From positions 131,569 to 195,568 of the forward strand of contig CAZFVQ010000001.1 in assembly GCA_964522415.1 (NCBI GenBank): a stretch of DNA of 64,000 bases, written 5' to 3'. The DNA is from an uncultured Rikenellaceae bacterium (lineage in GTDB: Bacteria; Bacteroidota; Bacteroidia; Bacteroidales; VadinHA17). A program made the translations under genes and the position numbers. The notes under the pieces are model-generated. The model was not told the origin of the DNA. It worked only from the letters and a program-made list of their open reading frames with translations, and made no database searches. Shown here piece after piece: positions 26,738 to 36,644 of the stretch; the first letter of the stretch is position 1; each line of letters starts with the position of its first letter.

Positions 26738-28102
26738 ATGAAAGTCTTTACAAAAATCGCAGTTGTTGTTCTTTTTGTCCTTGGGTCCTGCACAACAAGG
26801 CTCCATACTGTGGCAGAGTATGATGATCTTTACTATCTTCCTTCTGATCAGCAGTATGCAACCGTAGTGCGTACTCAGGGCAAGAAGAAGGTGGTTGAGA
26901 ACACCCTTAGGTCTGAAGAATACTGGGATAATATTTACGCAGCCGATACTCTCGTGTCCGGTGAATACTATGATGCAATTGACTATGATGATGTCATTGT
27001 CAGTCAGGGGGGTAATGTGAATAATTATTATTATCTTGACGATTATTCGTATGCGGGAAGACTTAACAGGTTTCACGGAAACTATTTCTATCCTTACTGG
27101 AGGGATCCTTTCTACTATGGTATGGGTTATCCCTCACTGAGTTTCTCATTCGGAAGGCCATACTATTACAGTCCGTTCTACTATGATTCCTATTACTACG
27201 ATCCTTTTTACAGTTATAACAGATACTACGGATACTACGGAGGTTATTACGGAAACTATTTTGGCTCATACTACAATCCTTACTACAGCTCATATTACTA
27301 CTCACCATGGTATGGCGGATATGGCTACGGCTACGGCTACAGTGATCACTACAGCTCTGTGAACTACGGGAGGAGGGAGCGTCAGAGCACCTTATCCACA
27401 AATTACAACAGGGAACTTACGCCTGCAGCTACGGCTTCTGCAAGAAGAGAGGGATTAGTTCCGGCAGGAAGTGATGCAACAGCCAGACAGTCAACAGGCA
27501 GCTCCATTCAACAGACTTCAAGAAGATCCGCTGCGACAGTCCAGAACAAGGATGCCGCCGGTACTTCCGCCTCAAGATCATCACAGGGTGAAGTCAGGCA
27601 GAATGCCACATCAGGCGACAGATCACCGGCATCAGTCAGAAGCTCGAATGCGGCAAAGCCGGAGTACAACAGTGTAAACAGGACATATACTCCCAGTTAC
27701 ACTAATCCGAGGACCAGTACCAGGCCTTCGTATAATAACAGCAGGATAATAAACAGCAATACCGGAACACAACGTTCATTATATCCCCAAACCCAGAGAA
27801 GCACGCAAAGGAACACGTCGTCTTCATATTCCTCAGGACAAACAAGATCTGTACCTTCGTCAGGCAACCAGAGCAGCTACACAATGCCTTCAAGGAGAAG
27901 CATTGAAAGCGGATCAGGATACACAGGGACTTCATCCGGCCGTTCCACAGCCAGCAAATATTCATCGGGAAGTTCTTCATCATCTTCCACAGGCAGATCC
28001 TATTCAGGCAGTAGCGGCGGCTTTTCATCAGGCAGTTCCTCTTCATCGGGCAGCTCCTCTTCACGGTCTTCAGGCGCTTCGTCCTCCGGGGGAAGAAGAT
28101 AG
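26738..28102 (+). CDS. Lipoprotein with an extreme Tyr/Gly-rich low-complexity block and a Ser/Thr/Arg-rich tail
   Basis: Lipobox-like N-terminus MKVFTKIAVVVLFVLGSC, then a ~130-residue block dominated by Y, G, P, S and D (YYYSPFYYDSYYYDPFYSYNRYYGYYGGYYGNYFGSYYNPYY), then ~240 residues of S/T/R/Q/N-rich sequence ending SSGGRR. Confidence 0.75.
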   Translation: MKVFTKIAVVVLFVLGSCTTRLHTVAEYDDLYYLPSDQQYATVVRTQGKKKVVENTLRSEEYWDNIYAADTLVSGEYYDAIDYDDVIVSQGGNVNNYYYLDDYSYAGRLNRFHGNYFYPYWRDPFYYGMGYPSLSFSFGRPYYYSPFYYDSYYYDPFYSYNRYYGYYGGYYGNYFGSYYNPYYSSYYYSPWYGGYGYGYGYSDHYSSVNYGRRERQSTLSTNYNRELTPAATASARREGLVPAGSDATARQSTGSSIQQTSRRSAATVQNKDAAGTSASRSSQGEVRQNATSGDRSPASVRSSNAAKPEYNSVNRTYTPSYTNPRTSTRPSYNNSRIINSNTGTQRSLYPQTQRSTQRNTSSSYSSGQTRSVPSSGNQSSYTMPSRRSIESGSGYTGTSSGRSTASKYSSGSSSSSSTGRSYSGSSGGFSSGSSSSSGSSSSRSSGASSSGGRR

Positions 28103-30363: not shown

Positions 30364-31113
30364 TCATTTCATCCTGTTTATCATACTTGCCGAAAAACCG
30401 GCACCGAATCCGTTGTCAATATTTACAACCGTTACCCCGGCAGAACAGCTTGTAAGCATTGCAAGCAAAGCAGAGATACCGCCTAAACTGGCTCCATACC
30501 CGACGCTTGTGGGAACGGCTATTATTGGTTTGTTGACAAGTCCTCCCACGACACTTGCAAGGGCACCTTCCATTCCTGCAATGACTATTATTACCTTACA
30601 GCTTCTTATTTCCGGCAGTTTGTCAACCAGCCTGTGAATACCTGCAACGCCTGCATCATAGATCCTGATAATCCTGTTGCCAAGGAGTTCCGCGGTAACG
30701 GCAGCTTCTTCCGCTACGGGAATATCGGATGTTCCCGCAGTAATGACGGCAATACAGGTATCGGGCATTTCCGGTTTTTTCTTCTGAATGGATATTATTT
30801 TTGCTTCTTCATAATAATGAGCGTCGGGACAGATTTCCCTGACAGCTTCATACATCGCTGAATCAGCCCTGGTGCCTACTATATTGTTTTCCTTTTCAGA
30901 CATTATCCTGAAAATTTCCTTTACCTGTCCGGTGGTTTTACCGGCACAATAAACTATTTCCGGATATCCGGTCCTGATCTCCCTGTGGTGATCAATCCTG
31001 GCAAATCCAAGATCGGTATAGGGGAATGATTTCAGCACTTCAAGAGCTTCAGGAACGCTTTTTAATCCATTCCTGACGTCAGTGAGAAGTTTCTCAATTT
31101 CTTTTCCTGTCAT
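30364..31113 (-). CDS. larB: Nickel-pincer cofactor biosynthesis protein LarB (PurE-like NaAD carboxylase/hydrolase)
   Basis: 249 aa. N-terminal region with FARIDHHREIRTGYPEIVYCAGKT, then a PurE-like Rossmann part (IAVITAGTSDIPVAEEA, IVIAGMEGALASVVGG). Confidence 0.85.
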   Translation of the reverse strand: MTGKEIEKLLTDVRNGLKSVPEALEVLKSFPYTDLGFARIDHHREIRTGYPEIVYCAGKTTGQVKEIFRIMSEKENNIVGTRADSAMYEAVREICPDAHYYEEAKIISIQKKKPEMPDTCIAVITAGTSDIPVAEEAAVTAELLGNRIIRIYDAGVAGIHRLVDKLPEIRSCKVIIVIAGMEGALASVVGGLVNKPIIAVPTSVGYGASLGGISALLAMLTSCSAGVTVVNIDNGFGAGFSASMINRMK

Positions 31114-31916
31114 TTTTCGGAATTATATGGGTGATCCATGCTGCCTGTTCTGTATCCTTCGAGGTCTAAAGATACATATCTGAAACCTATTTCCTTCAAA
31201 TAGGATATTATGGATTTTCTGTCCGGATCCCTGACAAGCTTTTCCAGGTAACCGGGAATACACTCTATTCTTGCAATATCACCGTGTATCCTCACTCTTG
31301 TGCCCGGGAATCCTTTTTCAAAAAGAAAATCCTCAGCTTTTTCAACCATTGTGAGAATATCTTCGCTTATTCTGGTATCATAGGGTATTCTGGTAAGCAG
31401 GCATGACATTGCCGGTTTCTCCCATAGGGAAAGTCCTGCCTCCCGTGCATGTTCCCTTATTTCCGGTCTTGACAGTCCGGCTTCGGCAAGAGGACTTCTG
31501 ACCTGCATCTCATTAAGAGCTTTCAGACCCGGTCTGTATAAATTAAAATCATCAGCGTTTGTTCCGTCCAGAATATATTCATAGTTGTTTTCACGGGCAA
31601 AATCAATTATTCTGTCAAAAAGAATTCTTTTGCACAGATAACACCTTTCAGATGGATTGTGCCTGATTTCACGGGGAAAGGGAATTTCGATGATCCTGTG
31701 ACTGATGCCATGTTCTGAAGTGAAATTTACAGCTTCTTTTATTTCCCGTTCCGGAATATATTTTGTTTTAATTGTAACTGCTTTAAAATCAAGATTTCCA
31801 AACGTGTTCGCCCTGTGAATCAGGAATGAACTGTCGAGTCCGCCCGAAAATCCGATTACGAAGGATCTGAGATTCCTGAGTATGGAATCCAGCTTCTGGA
31901 GTTTAATGTCTGACAT
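31110..31916 (-). CDS. larE: ATP-dependent sacrificial sulfur transferase LarE (PP-loop ATPase)
   Basis: PP-loop GFSGGLDSS and a Cys-bearing loop AMSCLLTRIPY. It overlaps the larB start by 4 nt. Confidence 0.85.
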   Translation of the reverse strand: MSDIKLQKLDSILRNLRSFVIGFSGGLDSSFLIHRANTFGNLDFKAVTIKTKYIPEREIKEAVNFTSEHGISHRIIEIPFPREIRHNPSERCYLCKRILFDRIIDFARENNYEYILDGTNADDFNLYRPGLKALNEMQVRSPLAEAGLSRPEIREHAREAGLSLWEKPAMSCLLTRIPYDTRISEDILTMVEKAEDFLFEKGFPGTRVRIHGDIARIECIPGYLEKLVRDPDRKSIISYLKEIGFRYVSLDLEGYRTGSMDHPYNSEK

Positions 31917-31952
31917 GTTTCTTATGTAATCATTCTGGTTCTTCAGGGAATT

Positions 31953-33254
31953 TTATTCCCTGAAAATTGTAGCGATAATCTTATTGTAGACTTCCCTGAC
32001 AGGTATTCCTTTTTCATTTGCAATCCGTTTGCAATCTGAATATTCCGGTTTGACAGAAACTTCCCTGCCGTTGTGGAAGGAACGTTTCACCATGATTTTA
32101 CCGAAAACAGTATTGATTTGTTCAAATTTTCTTTCCAGGGTGTCTTTTTTATATTCAATTGTCCGGATACCGACCGAGGTTGATTCGGTAAATATTATTT
32201 CCTTCAGGATATCATCGTTTCCCTTTTCACAGATAACGTTCAGAATGCTTCCGGGTCTTCCTTTCTTCATTATTGTGCCGGTAACATATACATCCGAGGC
32301 TCCTGCTGCAAAAAGCTTTTCTGATAAATGGTCATAGAATTCCGGATTCATGTCATCAATATTGCACTGAAGGAGCAATGCATCGTGTCCGCTTGTCCTG
32401 CCTTCGCTTTCAGCAAGAAAAACCCTGAGCATGTTTGGTATGCCGGGATCTTCTTTCTGGCCTACGCCATATCCGGTTTTAAGAATCCTGAAGCCGGGCA
32501 GATCTGAAAAATGTGTTCCAAGAGAAGCCAGGATTGCAGCACCTGTCGGGGTTGTTGCTTCAAAACCGGCTCCGCCAATTTTTACCTCCACTCCTTTTAT
32601 TATTTCCGCTGTCGCAGGTGCGGGTACGGGAAGCCTGCCATGGCTGCAGTTTACGAATCCGCTGCCAAGTTCAACGGGACCAACGAAAACCGCATCAACA
32701 CCGAGAGTATTGAAACATATAGCTGCACCCACGGTATCCACAATTGAATCAATTGCACCAACTTCATGAAAATGAACATCTTCAAGAGCAAGCCCGTGTA
32801 CCTTTGATTCGGCTTCTGCCACTTTCAAAAATATCTTTTTGCTCAGTTCCTTTGTTTTAGAATCAATCTGTGAATTATCTATAATTTTTACTATGTCAGA
32901 AAGATTCCTGTCAACGTGATCGTGATGGTGATCGTGATCGTGTCCGTGATGGTGATCGTGATCGTGATCGTGATCGTGATGGTGATCGTGATCGTGATGG
33001 TGATCGTGATCGTGATCGTGCCCGTGATCGTGTCCGTGATCATGTCCGTGATCATGTCCAGCAAGCCTTACCGTTACTTTTGTTCCGGAAATACCATGCC
33101 TCTGATCCTTTTCAACCAGTATTTCCCATCCCGGAAGGTTTAGCTTCTCCAGTTCCCCGAGCAGATAATCCTTGTCAACGCCAAGATCGATCATCGCACC
33201 CAGGTTCATATCTCCGCTTATTCCCGAGAAACAATCATAATACAAGATTTTCAT
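31953..33254 (-). CDS. larC: Nickel insertion protein LarC (DUF111 cyclometallase) with a long His/Asp tract
   Basis: Canonical N-terminus MKILYYDCFSGISGDMNLGAMIDLG, a ~50-residue (H/D/G) tract and a single fused 433-aa ORF. Confidence 0.9.
   Translation of the reverse strand: MKILYYDCFSGISGDMNLGAMIDLGVDKDYLLGELEKLNLPGWEILVEKDQRHGISGTKVTVRLAGHDHGHDHGHDHGHDHDHDHHHDHDHHHDHDHDHDHHHGHDHDHHHDHVDRNLSDIVKIIDNSQIDSKTKELSKKIFLKVAEAESKVHGLALEDVHFHEVGAIDSIVDTVGAAICFNTLGVDAVFVGPVELGSGFVNCSHGRLPVPAPATAEIIKGVEVKIGGAGFEATTPTGAAILASLGTHFSDLPGFRILKTGYGVGQKEDPGIPNMLRVFLAESEGRTSGHDALLLQCNIDDMNPEFYDHLSEKLFAAGASDVYVTGTIMKKGRPGSILNVICEKGNDDILKEIIFTESTSVGIRTIEYKKDTLERKFEQINTVFGKIMVKRSFHNGREVSVKPEYSDCKRIANEKGIPVREVYNKIIATIFRE
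32916..33068 (-). repeat. Hexanucleotide-type coding microsatellite (plus strand GTGATC/GTGATG/GTGTCC units) encoding the LarC His-Asp tract
   Basis: About 25 near-tandem 6-nt units are visible directly in the sequence. They translate to GHDHGHDHGHDHGHDHDHDHHHDHDHHHDHDHDHDHHHGHDHDHHHDH. Confidence 0.9.
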
Positions 33255-33352
33255 CTGTCTGTAATTTTAATGGTCAGATAATTTGTCCCGGTTTATCGGG
33301 AACTCCCATGAATCCAAAGTCATACCCGTGTATGTAAATTCTTTGCATGGTC
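33255..33352 (-). promoter_or_regulatory. Conserved ~100-nt 5' leader element, copy A (abuts the larC start codon)
   Basis: About 90 percent identical to 41974-42076 upstream of purA, in the same orientation and the same register relative to the ATG. Not coding: the indels break the frame between copies. Confidence 0.6.
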
Positions 33353-33530
33353 CTTTCATCTATCTGTTAATTTATATATATGGTATAACAACTAAAAATG
33401 CATAAGGTTAAGAGTCCTTCATTCATTTCGTGGGCTAATATACGATAACAAACTGTTAAAGATTAGTAAAAAAATCGTATTTTGTGCCACTTATTGTTGG
33501 GGCAGGATTTAATTTTATTATTTTGTTGCA

Positions 33531-34454
33531 ATGAAAAGAAGAGATTTTATAAAGACGTCTGCCGGTGCGGGTTTGGGTGCAGGATTTGCATTTGGGGCAG
33601 GCAGGCGCGATGATTTTTTCAGGGCATCTCAGGGCAGGTCCGACAAATATGATATGGTTGCTGTTATGGGAGGCAGCCCGGCAGCAATGTTTGATCTTGC
33701 TGTTCAGGAACTGGGAGGTATGGGGACTTTTGTGAAGAAGGGGCAGAAAGTGCTTGTGAAGCCCAACATAGGATGGGATGTGGTTCCGGAACTCGCGGCG
33801 AACACGAATCCTCTGCTGGTCAGAAGGGTTATAGAGCATTGTCTGAAGGCAGGAGCCAGGGAAGTATATGTATTTGACCACACAATTGATAACTGGGTAA
33901 ACTGCTACAGGAATTCCGGCATTGAAAGGGCTGCAAAGCAGGCCGGTGCCAAGGTGGTTCCTGCAGGAAGCGAGAAATATTACCAGGAGGTGAGCATCCC
34001 CGGCGGGATAAAGCTCCGCAGGGCCAAGGTCCATGAACTGATCCTTGATACGGATGTGTTTATCAATGTACCGGTTGTCAAGGATCATAACTCCGTAAGA
34101 ATGACATGCAGTCTTAAAAACATGATGGGTGTTGTGTGGGACAGGGCCTACTGGCATAAAAACGATCTGAATCAGTGTATAGTGGATTATGCGATGTTTC
34201 ATAAGAAGCCTGCCCTGAATGTGATTGACTGCTATAATGTAATGGTTCAGCACGGTCCGCAGGGTGTTTCAAAAGCCGATGTTGTTCAGATGAAATCATT
34301 GATTCTGGCAACTGACTGGGTTGCAGGTGATGCTGCTGCATCAAGGATGCTTGGAACAGAAACCTCGAAAATTGAATATATTCCCATGGCACACAAGCTG
34401 GGACTTGGCACAATGGATATTGACACTTTGAATATCAAAAGAATAAAAATGTAA
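33531..34454 (+). CDS. Tat-exported DUF362 domain protein
   Basis: Twin-arginine signal MKRRDFIKTSAGAGLGAGFAFGAG, plus DUF362-type blocks VLVKPNIG and INVPVVKDHNSVRMTCSLKNMMG. Confidence 0.75.
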   Translation: MKRRDFIKTSAGAGLGAGFAFGAGRRDDFFRASQGRSDKYDMVAVMGGSPAAMFDLAVQELGGMGTFVKKGQKVLVKPNIGWDVVPELAANTNPLLVRRVIEHCLKAGAREVYVFDHTIDNWVNCYRNSGIERAAKQAGAKVVPAGSEKYYQEVSIPGGIKLRRAKVHELILDTDVFINVPVVKDHNSVRMTCSLKNMMGVVWDRAYWHKNDLNQCIVDYAMFHKKPALNVIDCYNVMVQHGPQGVSKADVVQMKSLILATDWVAGDAAASRMLGTETSKIEYIPMAHKLGLGTMDIDTLNIKRIKM

Positions 34455-34460
34455 TTACCG

Positions 34461-36020
34461 ATGTGGTCAACTTTCTTGAGAAGCTTCCGGATATTTTTTT
34501 CAGCATTCATAGTTATTTGTTTCATTGTTGTCTTCAGTGATTTTAAATACATTATCCCGTCAAAATACATCAATTTCCTTTTATGGTTTCAGTTTGTTCC
34601 TTCGGCAGTGAAATTTTATGATCTCTTTACACTGGCTGCCGCAGGATTTGCCGGAGTGCTGGTACTGACACTGATTACCGGAAGAACTTATTGTTCATTC
34701 CTGTGTCCTCTCGGGATAGCCCAGGATATTAACAGCAGGATAGGGGGCAGGGTCCGAAGGAAATTCCGCAGATACGGCTATAAGAAACCATTCACCATAC
34801 TGAGATACCTGATTCTTGCTGTTGTACTTGTAGTGACCTTTTTTTCCGGTATTTATCTTCTTTCCCTGCTTGATCCTTACGCCATATTCGGCAGATCAGT
34901 GACCATGTTCATTAAACCGCTTGTGGTTGTAATGAATAATTTCCTTGTCTGGATACTCGCGAAGTTTGACAATTACAGTCTCAGCCATATAACCGCAGGC
35001 GGCTTCAAGCTTGTTTCCCTTGCAATACCGGCAGTATTTTTTCTTCTTGTGGCAGGACTCTCACTTACCAAAGGCCGTTTGTACTGCAACATGATTTGTC
35101 CTGTGGGTACTCTTCTTGGTTTTTTATCGAAAATATCCTTCCTGAGGATCAGGTTTGATGTGGACAAATGTACCAAATGCGGCAGATGTTCGCTTGGATG
35201 CAAATCGTCCTGTATTGATTTCATTAACCACAGTGTTGATGTTTCAAGATGTGTTGCCTGCTTCAATTGTATCAATATATGTCCTGACAAGGCCCTGTCC
35301 TACGGACCGGTACGTCTTAAAAAGAAATCCCGTCCCGTGGATGAAAACAGGAGAAAACTTATTGCCGGCTCACTTGCTGCCTTATTTGGTGTTCCGGCTC
35401 TTTTGAAGAGTCAGGACAGTAAAACACCCATACCCCTGATCCTTTCCACAGTACCCGAGAACAGGACATGTCCTGTTGCTCCTCCGGGAGCCGGATCCCT
35501 GGAAGAATTCAACAGGACCTGCGTTGCATGCTCACTTTGCATAACTGCTTGTCCGAACGAAGTGCTGGTTCCCGCTTTTCTGCAGTATGGTATTGCCGGG
35601 ATCATGCAGCCGGTGATGGATTACAATAAAAGTTTCTGTACTTACAACTGTACCAGATGCACGGAAATCTGTCCCACGTATTCCCTGCGTCCCCTGGAGA
35701 TTGAAGCCAAAAAGCTCACACAGCTTGGAAAGGTTGTTTTTATTAAGGATAATTGCATTGTTAAAACTGAAAAGACGGCCTGCGGTGCCTGTTCTGAGTC
35801 ATGTCCTACAAAAGCTGTGTATATGATACCCTATGAAGGCAATCTTCTGATACCTGAAACCAATACTGATATCTGTATAGGTTGCGGGCATTGTGAATTT
35901 GCCTGTCCCACCAAGCCTTACAAGGCGATATTTGTGGATGGTAATCCGGTACATCTGACCGCAGATAAACCGCTTGAGGAAGAATCTGATATACAGGCTC
36001 CCGTCGAATTTCCCTTTTAA
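34461..36020 (+). CDS. Membrane-anchored polyferredoxin (NapH/MauN-like 4Fe-4S protein)
   Basis: Several TM helices with CSFLCPLG and CNMICPVG (CxxxCP) motifs. About six ferredoxin-type Cys clusters follow ([65 protein letters not shown]). Confidence 0.8.
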
Positions 36021-36046
36021 GCATACTGAGTTTGCAGATAATTACT

Positions 36047-36460
36047 ATGACTCCCACACATATAGAACATATAGGAATTGCAGTAAAGAATCTTGAATCA
36101 GCAATCGGATTCTATGAAAGGGTTATTGGTCTGAAGTGCCATAAAATTGAAGAAGTGCCTGATCAGAAAGTTAGAGCAGCATTTTTCCGGGTTGGCCGGA
36201 CCACCATTGAATTACTGGAAGCAACGGATAATGACAGCCCTGTTGCCAGGTTTATCGAAAAGAAAGGAGAAGGCATGCATCATCTTGCCTTTGCAGTGGA
36301 AGATATTGAAAAAGACCTGGGTGAGATCAGGGATAAGGGGATCAGGCTTATCGATACTGTTCCGCGAAAAGGTGCGGGAAGTATGGATATTGCATTCATC
36401 CATCCGGAATCTTCCGGCGGAGTTCTTATTGAGCTCTGTGGGAAAAGAAATGAGAAATAA
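36047..36460 (+). CDS. VOC/glyoxalase-fold protein, methylmalonyl-CoA epimerase-like
   Basis: [19 protein letters not shown] ... [11 protein letters not shown] ... [16 protein letters not shown] pattern typical of methylmalonyl-CoA epimerase. The ATG at 36047 is preferred over the TTG at 36032. Confidence 0.75.
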
Positions 36461-36476
36461 TAATAACCTGAATAAT

Positions 36477-36644
36477 ATGAACATGGAAAAGTATGAATGC
36501 GAAATCTGCGGATATATTTATGATCCTGAGGAGGGAGATCCGGAAGGGGACATAAAGCCGGGAATACCTTTCAGCGATCTGCCGGATGATTATCTTTGTC
36601 CTGTATGTGCTGCAGGGAAGGAGGAATTCTTCGTCCTGAAATGA
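36477..36644 (+). CDS. Rubredoxin
   Basis: 55 aa, [22 protein letters not shown]...[15 protein letters not shown], with the two CxxCG-type knuckles. It is the only real coding part of the 165-aa track ORF 36147-36644. Confidence 0.9.

Follow-up and report, generated by a model that had tools for sequence, protein, structure and literature searches.

A lar cluster divergent from a Tat-signal DUF362 protein and a membrane polyferredoxin: a candidate periplasmic nickel-pincer nucleotide system

Within a 64-kb stretch of contig CAZFVQ010000001.1 from an uncultured Rikenellaceae bacterium (the window, numbered here from its first nucleotide), the genes larB, larE and larC, assigned to synthesis of a cofactor called nickel-pincer nucleotide (NPN), lie divergently from a gene pair encoding a DUF362 protein with a twin-arginine translocation (Tat) signal and a membrane polyferredoxin (PFD). 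We put at roughly one half the probability that this DUF362 protein is a dehydrogenase or reductase that is loaded with NPN in the cytoplasm, exported through Tat and wired to the quinone pool. What we observed, and what the proposal builds on, are the identities of the genes, the homology of the DUF362 protein to the LarA fold, the conservation of a Lys and a His, the NapH-NapG architecture of the polyferredoxin and the pairing of the two proteins. The features of the locus are as follows.

30364-31113, minus strand: larB, 249 aa, nicotinic acid adenine dinucleotide (NaAD) carboxylase/hydrolase for step 1 of NPN synthesis (NCBIfam NF033503 equivalog and PF00731 AIRC)
31110-31916, minus strand: larE, 268 aa, ATP-dependent sulfur transferase (TIGR00268 equivalog)
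31953-33254, minus strand: larC, 433 aa, CTP-dependent nickel insertase/cyclometallase (PF01969 and the LarC1/LarC2 equivalogs)
33255-33530, no strand: divergent control region of 276 bp, common to larCEB and DUF362-PFD
33531-34454, plus strand: DUF362 protein with Tat signal, 307 aa, candidate NPN-binding catalytic subunit (PF04015 and Tat motif)
33531-33650, plus strand: twin-arginine signal peptide region (MKRRDFIKTSAGAGLGAGFAFGAG), PF10518 match over residues 1-20
34461-36020, plus strand: membrane polyferredoxin, a NapH-NapG fusion of 519 aa (NCBIfam matches, motifs and hydropathy)

The sequence-based identities of the three lar products are firm, all of them lying above curated equivalog cut-offs: LarB scored 298.6 bits against 175 (NF033503), LarE 286.4 bits against 150 (TIGR00268), and LarC 213.2 bits against 90 for LarC1 and 135.8 bits against 50 for LarC2, with 480 bits for PF01969. 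The exact open reading frame (ORF) coordinates bear out a preliminary description of this locus in its minus-strand lar string, the 4-nt overlap of larE and larB, the 276-bp spacer and the 6-nt gap between the DUF362 stop and the polyferredoxin start, and Pfam and NCBIfam confirmed the Tat-motif DUF362 protein and the 519-aa membrane polyferredoxin that it had reported. Its statement that the 64 kb hold no DUF2088/LarA ORF also stood: tblastn of the window with a LarA query, verified as identical in sequence to PDB 5HUQ, gave a best hit at E=2.5, and a LarA hidden Markov model (HMM) found nothing below E=0.15 among all six-frame window ORFs of at least 80 aa. The label of an orphan cluster with no larA is right for DUF2088 in the window and fails in the wider sense, since the DUF362 protein is itself a relative within the LarA superfamily by Pfam clan (CL0471) and by Foldseek.

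Fold, export signal and conserved residues of the DUF362 protein

The DUF362 protein matched PF04015 at 163 bits (cut-off 24) in a Pfam scan, and its sole NCBIfam match was the 'Npun_F2552 family', a name taken from a Nostoc gene; homologues at 69-93% identity point to an uncultured Bacteroidales lineage as its source. PF04015 (DUF362) and PF09861 (DUF2088, the LarA N-domain) have been placed in one Pfam clan, CL0471, and DUF362 served as the outgroup of the LarA tree from the Desguin laboratory (PMC11770544). When the Pfam DUF362 HMM was run against a LarA protein (P0275), it matched LarA residues 82-245 with an E value of 1.3e-5, its 25.8 bits exceeding the gathering score of 24 bits, whereas the DUF362 protein gave no match to Lar_N (PF09861) in a Pfam scan to E<=10 that returned only PF04015 and the Tat signal; at the level of these families the kinship is therefore one of clan only. 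Other sequence comparisons with LarA were negative: pairwise BLAST of the two proteins gave no match, the DUF362 subfamily HMM was not significant against LarA, and phmmer and hmmsearch with the protein and its 99-sequence profile returned nothing real from the PDB sequences.

Structure also confirmed the relationship. An AlphaFold2 (AF2) model computed with 99 diverse homologues reached a pLDDT of 94.2 and a pTM of 0.87, with a folded domain from about residue 40 (pLDDT low before, at least 97 after). When this model was compared with the whole PDB by Foldseek, all 19 significant matches were LarA-family structures (2YJG, 5HUQ, 6C1W, 8EZH, 9EIA/9EID, 9Q3J/K, 4NAR and 6D6Z/7S91), with E values from 7e-7 to 2e-4 and a probability of 1.00, and the next match followed at E=4e-3. 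In the AF2 models of DUF362 and LarA the order of secondary-structure elements agrees throughout LarA residues ~39-270. The DUF362 protein stops about 35 residues past the equivalent of LarA residue 270; it has no match to LarA_C (PF21113), in agreement with the DSSP comparison, and no match to the aldo-keto reductase (AKR) family PF00248, nor was any AKR found among its Foldseek neighbours. With both a PF04015 match and a LarA-like fold, the protein is, as judged from these models, a single-domain homologue of the N-terminal domain of LarA. Its family alignment contains no conserved Cys, so that the protein itself should hold no Fe-S cluster, and nothing informative by way of fused domains turned up among the longer DUF362 representatives.

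The N-terminus starts with MKRRDFIK and carries the consensus RRxFxK motif, with a TAT_signal (PF10518) score of 20.8 bits, just below the 22.7-bit cut-off. The expected pattern (S/T-R-R-x-F-L-K followed by a hydrophobic region, kept in homologues) was found, and the RR motif recurs in most of the 99 diverse homologues; the DUF362 protein is thus a predicted Tat substrate.

Near-invariant positions in the subfamily are K77-P78-N79, D175, N179, K184, H186, K196-N197, G200, R205, H209, D233 and D267. The Lys/His signature was missing from only 6-7 of the 99 diverse representatives, and those that have it span about 24 of 29 clusters formed at 40% identity, with K196 and H209 conserved in at least 90% of the representatives. 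For LarA it has been established that R75, K184 and H200 bind NPN and that D72, H108, H174 and K298 are catalytic (PMC7583248). One hhalign register (register 1) places N79 on D72, H186 on H174, K196 on K184 (the NPN tether) and H209 on H200 (the Ni ligand) of LarA. As the HH evidence was weak, we judged the residue mapping by DSSP agreement and by the coordinates of the Pfam cross-hit. Against the LarA AF2 model, register 1 gave a three-state secondary-structure agreement (Q3) of 0.54-0.63 with 11-21 helix/strand conflicts; among ungapped offsets of the DUF362 and LarA DSSP strings, the four best (-9 to -12, Q3 ~0.52 against a median of 0.34) correspond to register 1, and the cross-hit coordinates (LarA 82-245) are compatible with register 1 alone. 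A second register, aligning DUF362 33-259 with LarA 92-315, was rejected at a Q3 of 0.48 with 27 helix/strand conflicts. K196 and H209 are thus the probable equivalents of LarA K184 and H200, on converging indirect evidence rather than by superposition. If the mapping holds, the DUF362 protein would retain the Lys tether, the His ligand of Ni and one catalytic His.

The polyferredoxin and the gene neighbourhoods

The 519-aa polyferredoxin matched multiple Fer4 families and had sub-threshold NCBIfam matches to NapH (residues 66-281) and NapG/NapF (327-492). Its N-terminal part has hydrophobic segments and two CxxxCP motifs, two CxxCxxCxxxC clusters are present, and the C-terminal part is a NapG-like multi-cluster ferredoxin domain. 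After an internal twin-arginine motif (ENRRKLIAG, residue 297) come a weakly hydrophobic segment and then a Lys; the mean hydropathy of that segment is 1.38, compared with 2.2-2.5 in the other transmembrane domains (TMDs), and an internal RR or KR motif was present in 55 of 56 distant homologues. A fused PFD with five TMDs from the delta-proteobacterium MLMS-1 is inserted by Sec and Tat together (Tooke et al., PMC5449189) and was read as a NapH-NapG fusion with its NapG-like domain facing the periplasm; no catalytic partner of the family was named (PMC5449189). The window protein shows the sequence features of such dual Sec/Tat PFDs, namely a NapH-like transmembrane part with clusters on its predicted cytoplasmic side, an internal RR and a NapG-like domain, and its NapG-like domain is likewise predicted to be periplasmic.

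Among 80 species-level Bacteroidales genomes, larC was found in 78, and the larC-DUF362-PFD adjacency was seen wherever the contig extended far enough, with larC divergent from DUF362 over a spacer of 139-499 bp in 76 loci. This arrangement is not due to chance. The flanking WbqC, OMP, MCE and M20 genes are also syntenic in these loci, and because such unrelated flanks have been kept too, we counted the Bacteroidales adjacency as one evolutionary event or lineage, not as 80.

An alignment of the spacer from the 76 Bacteroidales loci showed conserved blocks at about 33394-33500. An imperfect inverted repeat at 33430-33446 and 33474-33490 (GTGGGCTAATATACGAT / ATCGTATTTTGTGCCAC; two 17-nt arms with 76% complementarity, 27 nt apart) sits about 40 bp 5' of the DUF362 start, overlapping the columns that are most strongly conserved across these 76 genomes, and could serve the two divergent units as an operator or promoter. 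The 276-bp spacer had no Rfam match to a riboswitch or other known RNA.

Some further features of the Bacteroidales loci touch the lar genes. LarC of the window has an unusually long His/Asp-rich tract at residues ~56-113 (HDHGHDHGHDHGHDHDHDHHHDHDHHH), an insert of about 55 residues that presumably stores or delivers nickel. Of the 80 genomes, about 8 (L028, L033, L044, L046, L047, L054, L057 and L064) have no larE between larB and larC, with larB, larC, DUF362 and PFD kept in place; larE may lie elsewhere or have been replaced in these genomes. A 3.9-kb contig binned as Chloroflexota (L039, JBLNAO010000422.1) carries a Bacteroidales-type larC-DUF362-PFD-MCE arrangement at 61-73% identity and is probably mis-binned. 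The stretch 36032-36644, directly 3' of the polyferredoxin, holds a methylmalonyl-CoA epimerase gene (TIGR03081, 156 bits), syntenic in the Bacteroidales clade only, and then a rubredoxin-like C-terminus within the ORF at 36147-36644. Further away, at 26738-28102, a 454-aa ORF of extreme low complexity has a signal-like N-terminus, a Tyr/Gly/Pro-rich N half (YYYDPFYSYNRYYGYYGGYYGNYF) and a Ser/Arg/Thr-rich C half.

For a wider view, a scan anchored on a 38%-identical DUF362 homologue yielded 80 distant loci from Nitrospirota, Desulfobacterota, Acidobacteriota, Planctomycetota, Verrucomicrobiota, Zixibacteria, Spirochaetes and others, in which lar genes were scored as adjacent when within 10 kb. 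A PFD gene lies directly 3' of the Tat-DUF362 gene in 74 of these 80; besides the 6 nt in the window, the gap between the two was only a few nucleotides in the other loci examined for it. Adjacent lar genes were found in 4 of the 80, all of Smithella/Syntrophaceae type, where the lar cluster abuts an operon of a Tat-signal AKR fused to a 4Fe-4S domain (Tat-AKR-Fer4), DUF6599, Tat-DUF362 and PFD. The lar gene order varies among them, and one (L134) repeats the divergent layout of the window with a 345-bp spacer. A nikR gene (PF08753 and ribbon-helix-helix) lies 3' of the AKR-DUF6599-DUF362-PFD operon in three Smithella-type loci (within 13018-15182 of L151, 14661-15080 of L152 and 14713-15129 of L155), of which L152 has NikR and no lar genes within 10 kb, and in L151 the same region also holds a CbiM/PDGLE/CbiQ Ni/Co ECF transporter. 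Because the lar cluster directly abuts the operon each time, the adjacency is far tighter than expected by chance; it is lineage-specific yet recurrent, having arisen independently in a second phylum. Triad-less DUF362 paralogues from two lineages had neither PFD nor lar nearby, a contrast that is limited to these two lineages because the control scan (P0147) returned 2 loci only. As far as the sequences tell, the robust features of the family as a whole are the Lys/His signature and the Fe-S partner.

Other forms of DUF362 keep parts of this pattern. A cytoplasmic protein of 323 aa is found in Nostocales (L173 7968-8939; L174-L253) at 84-100% identity with more than 555 matches, and the Nostoc form retains the KPN / K-x-H / K-N / H / D signature in full. 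For cyanobacteria, larBCE have been reported together with neither LarA nor a known NPN client. In Subdoligranulum variabile (L256 14887-16032), a signal-less DUF362 is fused to a C-terminal 2x[4Fe-4S] ferredoxin, with the Lys/His signature kept when read by eye, and this natural fusion offers Rosetta-stone support for direct electron transfer from DUF362 to Fe-S clusters.

The Tat-AKR-Fer4 proteins (382-467 aa), often together with DUF6599, accompany the DUF362-PFD module at L134 7784-9941 and its equivalents in L140, L151, L152 and L155, at L081-L086 and at L255 5998-8929; AKR and DUF6599 each occur in 8 of the 80 distant loci, and neither is encoded in the 64-kb window. In Bacteroides finegoldii, a Tat-AKR-Fer4 pairs on its own with a paralogous NapH-NapG polyferredoxin. 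With no NAD(P)H at the disposal of an AKR in the periplasm, and with NphT as an example of an NPN-dependent AKR, these proteins could, by analogy, make up a second class of NPN enzymes that are exported; the Smithella AKR aligns to NphT over the H144-K200 region. One distant locus (L125 2579-3835) encodes a divergent bona fide LarA homologue (DTTR, GTHQP, PHEVVGYSGGAK and FFH motifs) with a TRAP-type transporter gene on one side and uronate isomerase on the other; a DUF362-PFD pair lies 6 kb away, so LarA and DUF362 can coexist in one genome.

A candidate mechanism and its rivals

The scheme that we infer for NPN binding, docking partner, direction of electron flow and substrate of the DUF362-PFD pair treats the five genes as one functional unit. 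LarB, LarE and LarC would make NPN in the cytoplasm, where alone it could be made and installed because NaAD, ATP and CTP are available only there, and the DUF362 protein would be loaded in the same compartment, K196 serving as thioamide tether and H209 supplying the fourth ligand of Ni. A periplasmic client with such a pre-installed cofactor would be exported folded, hence via Tat, and no other recognisable reason for Tat is apparent in this protein. As a half-LarA without the domain that closes the active site, it would leave the pyridinium-nickel centre open to a partner, would dock in the periplasm on the polyferredoxin's NapG-like Fe-S domain and would exchange electrons with it, and the NapH-like membrane part would link this chain with the menaquinone pool. 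Together the two proteins would then form a periplasmic NPN-dependent dehydrogenase or reductase, with a protein-tethered hydride cofactor where NAD(P)H is absent. Its chemistry would be net redox rather than racemisation, because racemisation needs two catalytic bases, a pair that DUF362 lacks. Hydroxy acids or carbohydrates are our best guesses at the substrate, in view of the fusions of DUF362 with CBM9 and dockerin modules known from gut metagenomes (PMC5742341), the sugar(-acid) substrates of LarA and NphT and the co-occurrence of Tat-AKR-Fer4.

Several observations weigh against this scheme, beginning with the indirectness of the residue mapping. The profile-profile alignments of DUF362 with LarA are weak, with HH probabilities no higher than about 5%, and the register that we rejected scores equal or better by HH once the LarA profile is deepened. 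The DUF362 protein has no counterpart of LarA R75 (NPN phosphate), of H108 or of the C-domain (K298, Q295), and thus lacks half of the pocket that takes up cofactor and substrate in LarA. As to context, 76 of the 80 distant Tat-DUF362/PFD loci are free of lar genes to a distance of 10 kb; P0121, the nearest outgroup at 51% identity, and the Parabacteroides distasonis copy (50%) keep the PFD with no adjacent lar; the 80 Nostocales loci have neither lar genes nor a PFD within 10 kb; and no lar genes lie near the Subdoligranulum copy. The Smithella Tat-AKR-Fer4, lying between lar and DUF362, could be the NPN client there. We also know of no precedent in NPN chemistry for the passage from a hydride carrier to one-electron Fe-S transfer without a flavin.

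The strongest rival draws on the same observations and holds that DUF362-PFD is a quinone-linked periplasmic redox module with another cofactor or metal, that lar serves a client elsewhere and that their adjacency is inherited synteny. PFD pairing in 74 of 80 distant loci with lar nearby in just 4, the lack of lar near the Nostocales, P. distasonis and Subdoligranulum copies, the synteny of the entire Bacteroidales region including clearly unrelated flanks, the weak HH statistics behind the residue mapping and the missing LarA C-domain and R75 all speak for it. However, there were at least two origins of lar adjacency, in different phyla and gene orders, with the cluster abutting the operon across a divergent spacer of 276-345 bp; the near-invariant Lys and His fall, in the alignment, on the residues that tether NPN and bind Ni, and both known NPN folds use such a pair; and no other cofactor motif is evident, there being no conserved Cys and no further Pfam domain. 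Cofactor biosynthesis genes are also often distant from client genes. We regard this alternative as a serious one that is nevertheless rather unlikely.

A second alternative, which we consider improbable, is that in the lar-adjacent lineages the NPN client is another exported enzyme, such as Tat-AKR-Fer4, with DUF362 as an accessory subunit within one periplasmic complex with it (electron-transfer adaptor, maturation factor or carrier). It fits the Smithella-type order of lar / Tat-AKR-Fer4 - DUF6599 - DUF362 - PFD, the existence of AKR-fold NPN enzymes and the alignment of the AKR to NphT across H144-K200, as well as the pairing of the paralogous PFD of B. finegoldii with Tat-AKR-Fer4 alone. 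Yet the window lacks both AKR and DUF6599, which are each confined to just 8 of 80 distant loci, DUF362 is the sole exported candidate adjoining lar in the Bacteroidales clade, and it has the LarA fold with the conserved Lys/His pair. That DUF362 is an ordinary periplasmic LarA-type 2-hydroxyacid racemase or epimerase, with a polyferredoxin unrelated in function, agrees with its LarA fold and with the conservation of residues matching H174, K184 and H200 but is very improbable, as there is no LarA_C domain and thus no K298 or Q295, nothing aligns to H108, the second catalytic His of the two-base mechanism, without which the protein should not be a racemase, and the near-universal PFD pairing (6-nt gap in the window) and the ferredoxin fusion point to net electron transfer.

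With these rivals weighed, the NPN-loaded, Tat-exported dehydrogenase or reductase remains our preferred reading of the DUF362 protein. The preliminary description had already proposed the DUF362 protein with the polyferredoxin as a candidate periplasmic NPN client, an idea that gains from the LarA-fold homology, the apparent Lys/His anchor and the lar adjacency in a second phylum; a lar linkage throughout the subfamily did not hold up, the neighbourhood being conserved in the Bacteroidales clade and the 4 of 80 Smithella-type loci and absent within 10 kb from the other 76 distant loci. Its view that LarA-family enzymes are the sole characterised NPN clients is outdated, as the AKR-fold NphT has been characterised (PMC13524815).

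More tentatively still, and with the odds in our view against it, DUF362 overall may be a second large NPN-binding branch of 'half-LarA' domains that pass electrons to Fe-S partners, a reading that would cover the Tat-exported, cytoplasmic, ferredoxin-fused and CBM9/dockerin-fused forms alike. Genomes with larBCE and without larA make up about 15% (PMC11796402), and this family-wide reading, if true, would explain part of them, possibly including the cyanobacteria. NPN would on this reading be a protein-tethered NAD surrogate as well as an isomerase cofactor, and would sustain net redox chemistry tied to respiratory chains, also in the periplasm with its lack of free pyridine nucleotides.

Before 2026, NPN was known solely from cytoplasmic LarA-type racemases and epimerases. 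Full-text searches returned one paper that mentions DUF362 with NPN, and there only as an outgroup (PMC11770544), and none linking NPN to Tat export or the periplasm. The locus offers a testable NPN-client candidate from LarA's own superfamily, in a branch so far used just as a phylogenetic outgroup; what is new, on the modelled fold, is a LarA-superfamily candidate with a new architecture, location and predicted chemistry. If the proposal is true, NPN chemistry would extend from the 'hidden' redox of isomerisation to net electron transfer with Fe-S clusters and the quinone pool, periplasmic hydride chemistry would have a route without NAD(P)H, and both a very large DUF and the NapH-NapG polyferredoxin family would gain a function.

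Comparison with known systems

The LarA family (5HUQ, 2YJG, 9EID, 6D6Z, 4NAR and 9Q3J) shares clan CL0471 and its fold with DUF362, and the DUF362 gene lies beside larB, larE and larC as larA often does. By comparison, the DUF362 protein is about 120 residues shorter and lacks LarA_C (PF21113: K298, Q295/Y294) as well as equivalents of H108 and R75, with an Asn (N79) in place of D72. It is also predicted from sequence to be exported by Tat, whereas the characterised LarA enzymes are cytoplasmic, and it has an obligate-looking Fe-S partner and a predicted chemistry of net redox in place of isomerisation.

NphT (PDB 9YEB) is an AKR-fold, NPN (NPMN)-dependent hydride transferase that holds its cofactor on K200 (tether) and H144 (Ni); it was found in 2026 by mining larBCE-without-larA neighbourhoods with a focus on proteins without LarA homology (PMC13524815), in a paper that also cites an NPAD-dependent ornithine cyclodeaminase. 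The larBCE-without-larA context is common to NphT and the candidate DUF362 protein, and so would be an anchor pair of Lys and His if the residue mapping holds. The folds are unrelated, however, as NphT is a TIM barrel; NphT works in the cytoplasm without an Fe-S partner, and the hydride that it carries passes from substrate to substrate, not to an electron chain.

Among membrane partners, the MLMS-1 PFD shares its architecture with the window polyferredoxin, whose topology and dual insertion are predicted from sequence. In nitrate respiration NapGH works for the molybdoenzyme NapA by way of NapC/NapB, whereas the window polyferredoxin adjoins a predicted exported DUF362 protein and one of its paralogues adjoins a Tat-AKR-Fer4 instead. 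A parallel in logic comes from MsrPQ (YedYZ) and other two-component reductases of this kind, periplasmic and supplied from the quinone pool, in which a Tat-exported, cofactor-loaded soluble catalytic subunit works with a membrane subunit that connects it to quinol; the proteins are unrelated, and the molybdenum cofactor and haem b there would have their counterparts here in the proposed NPN and Fe-S clusters.

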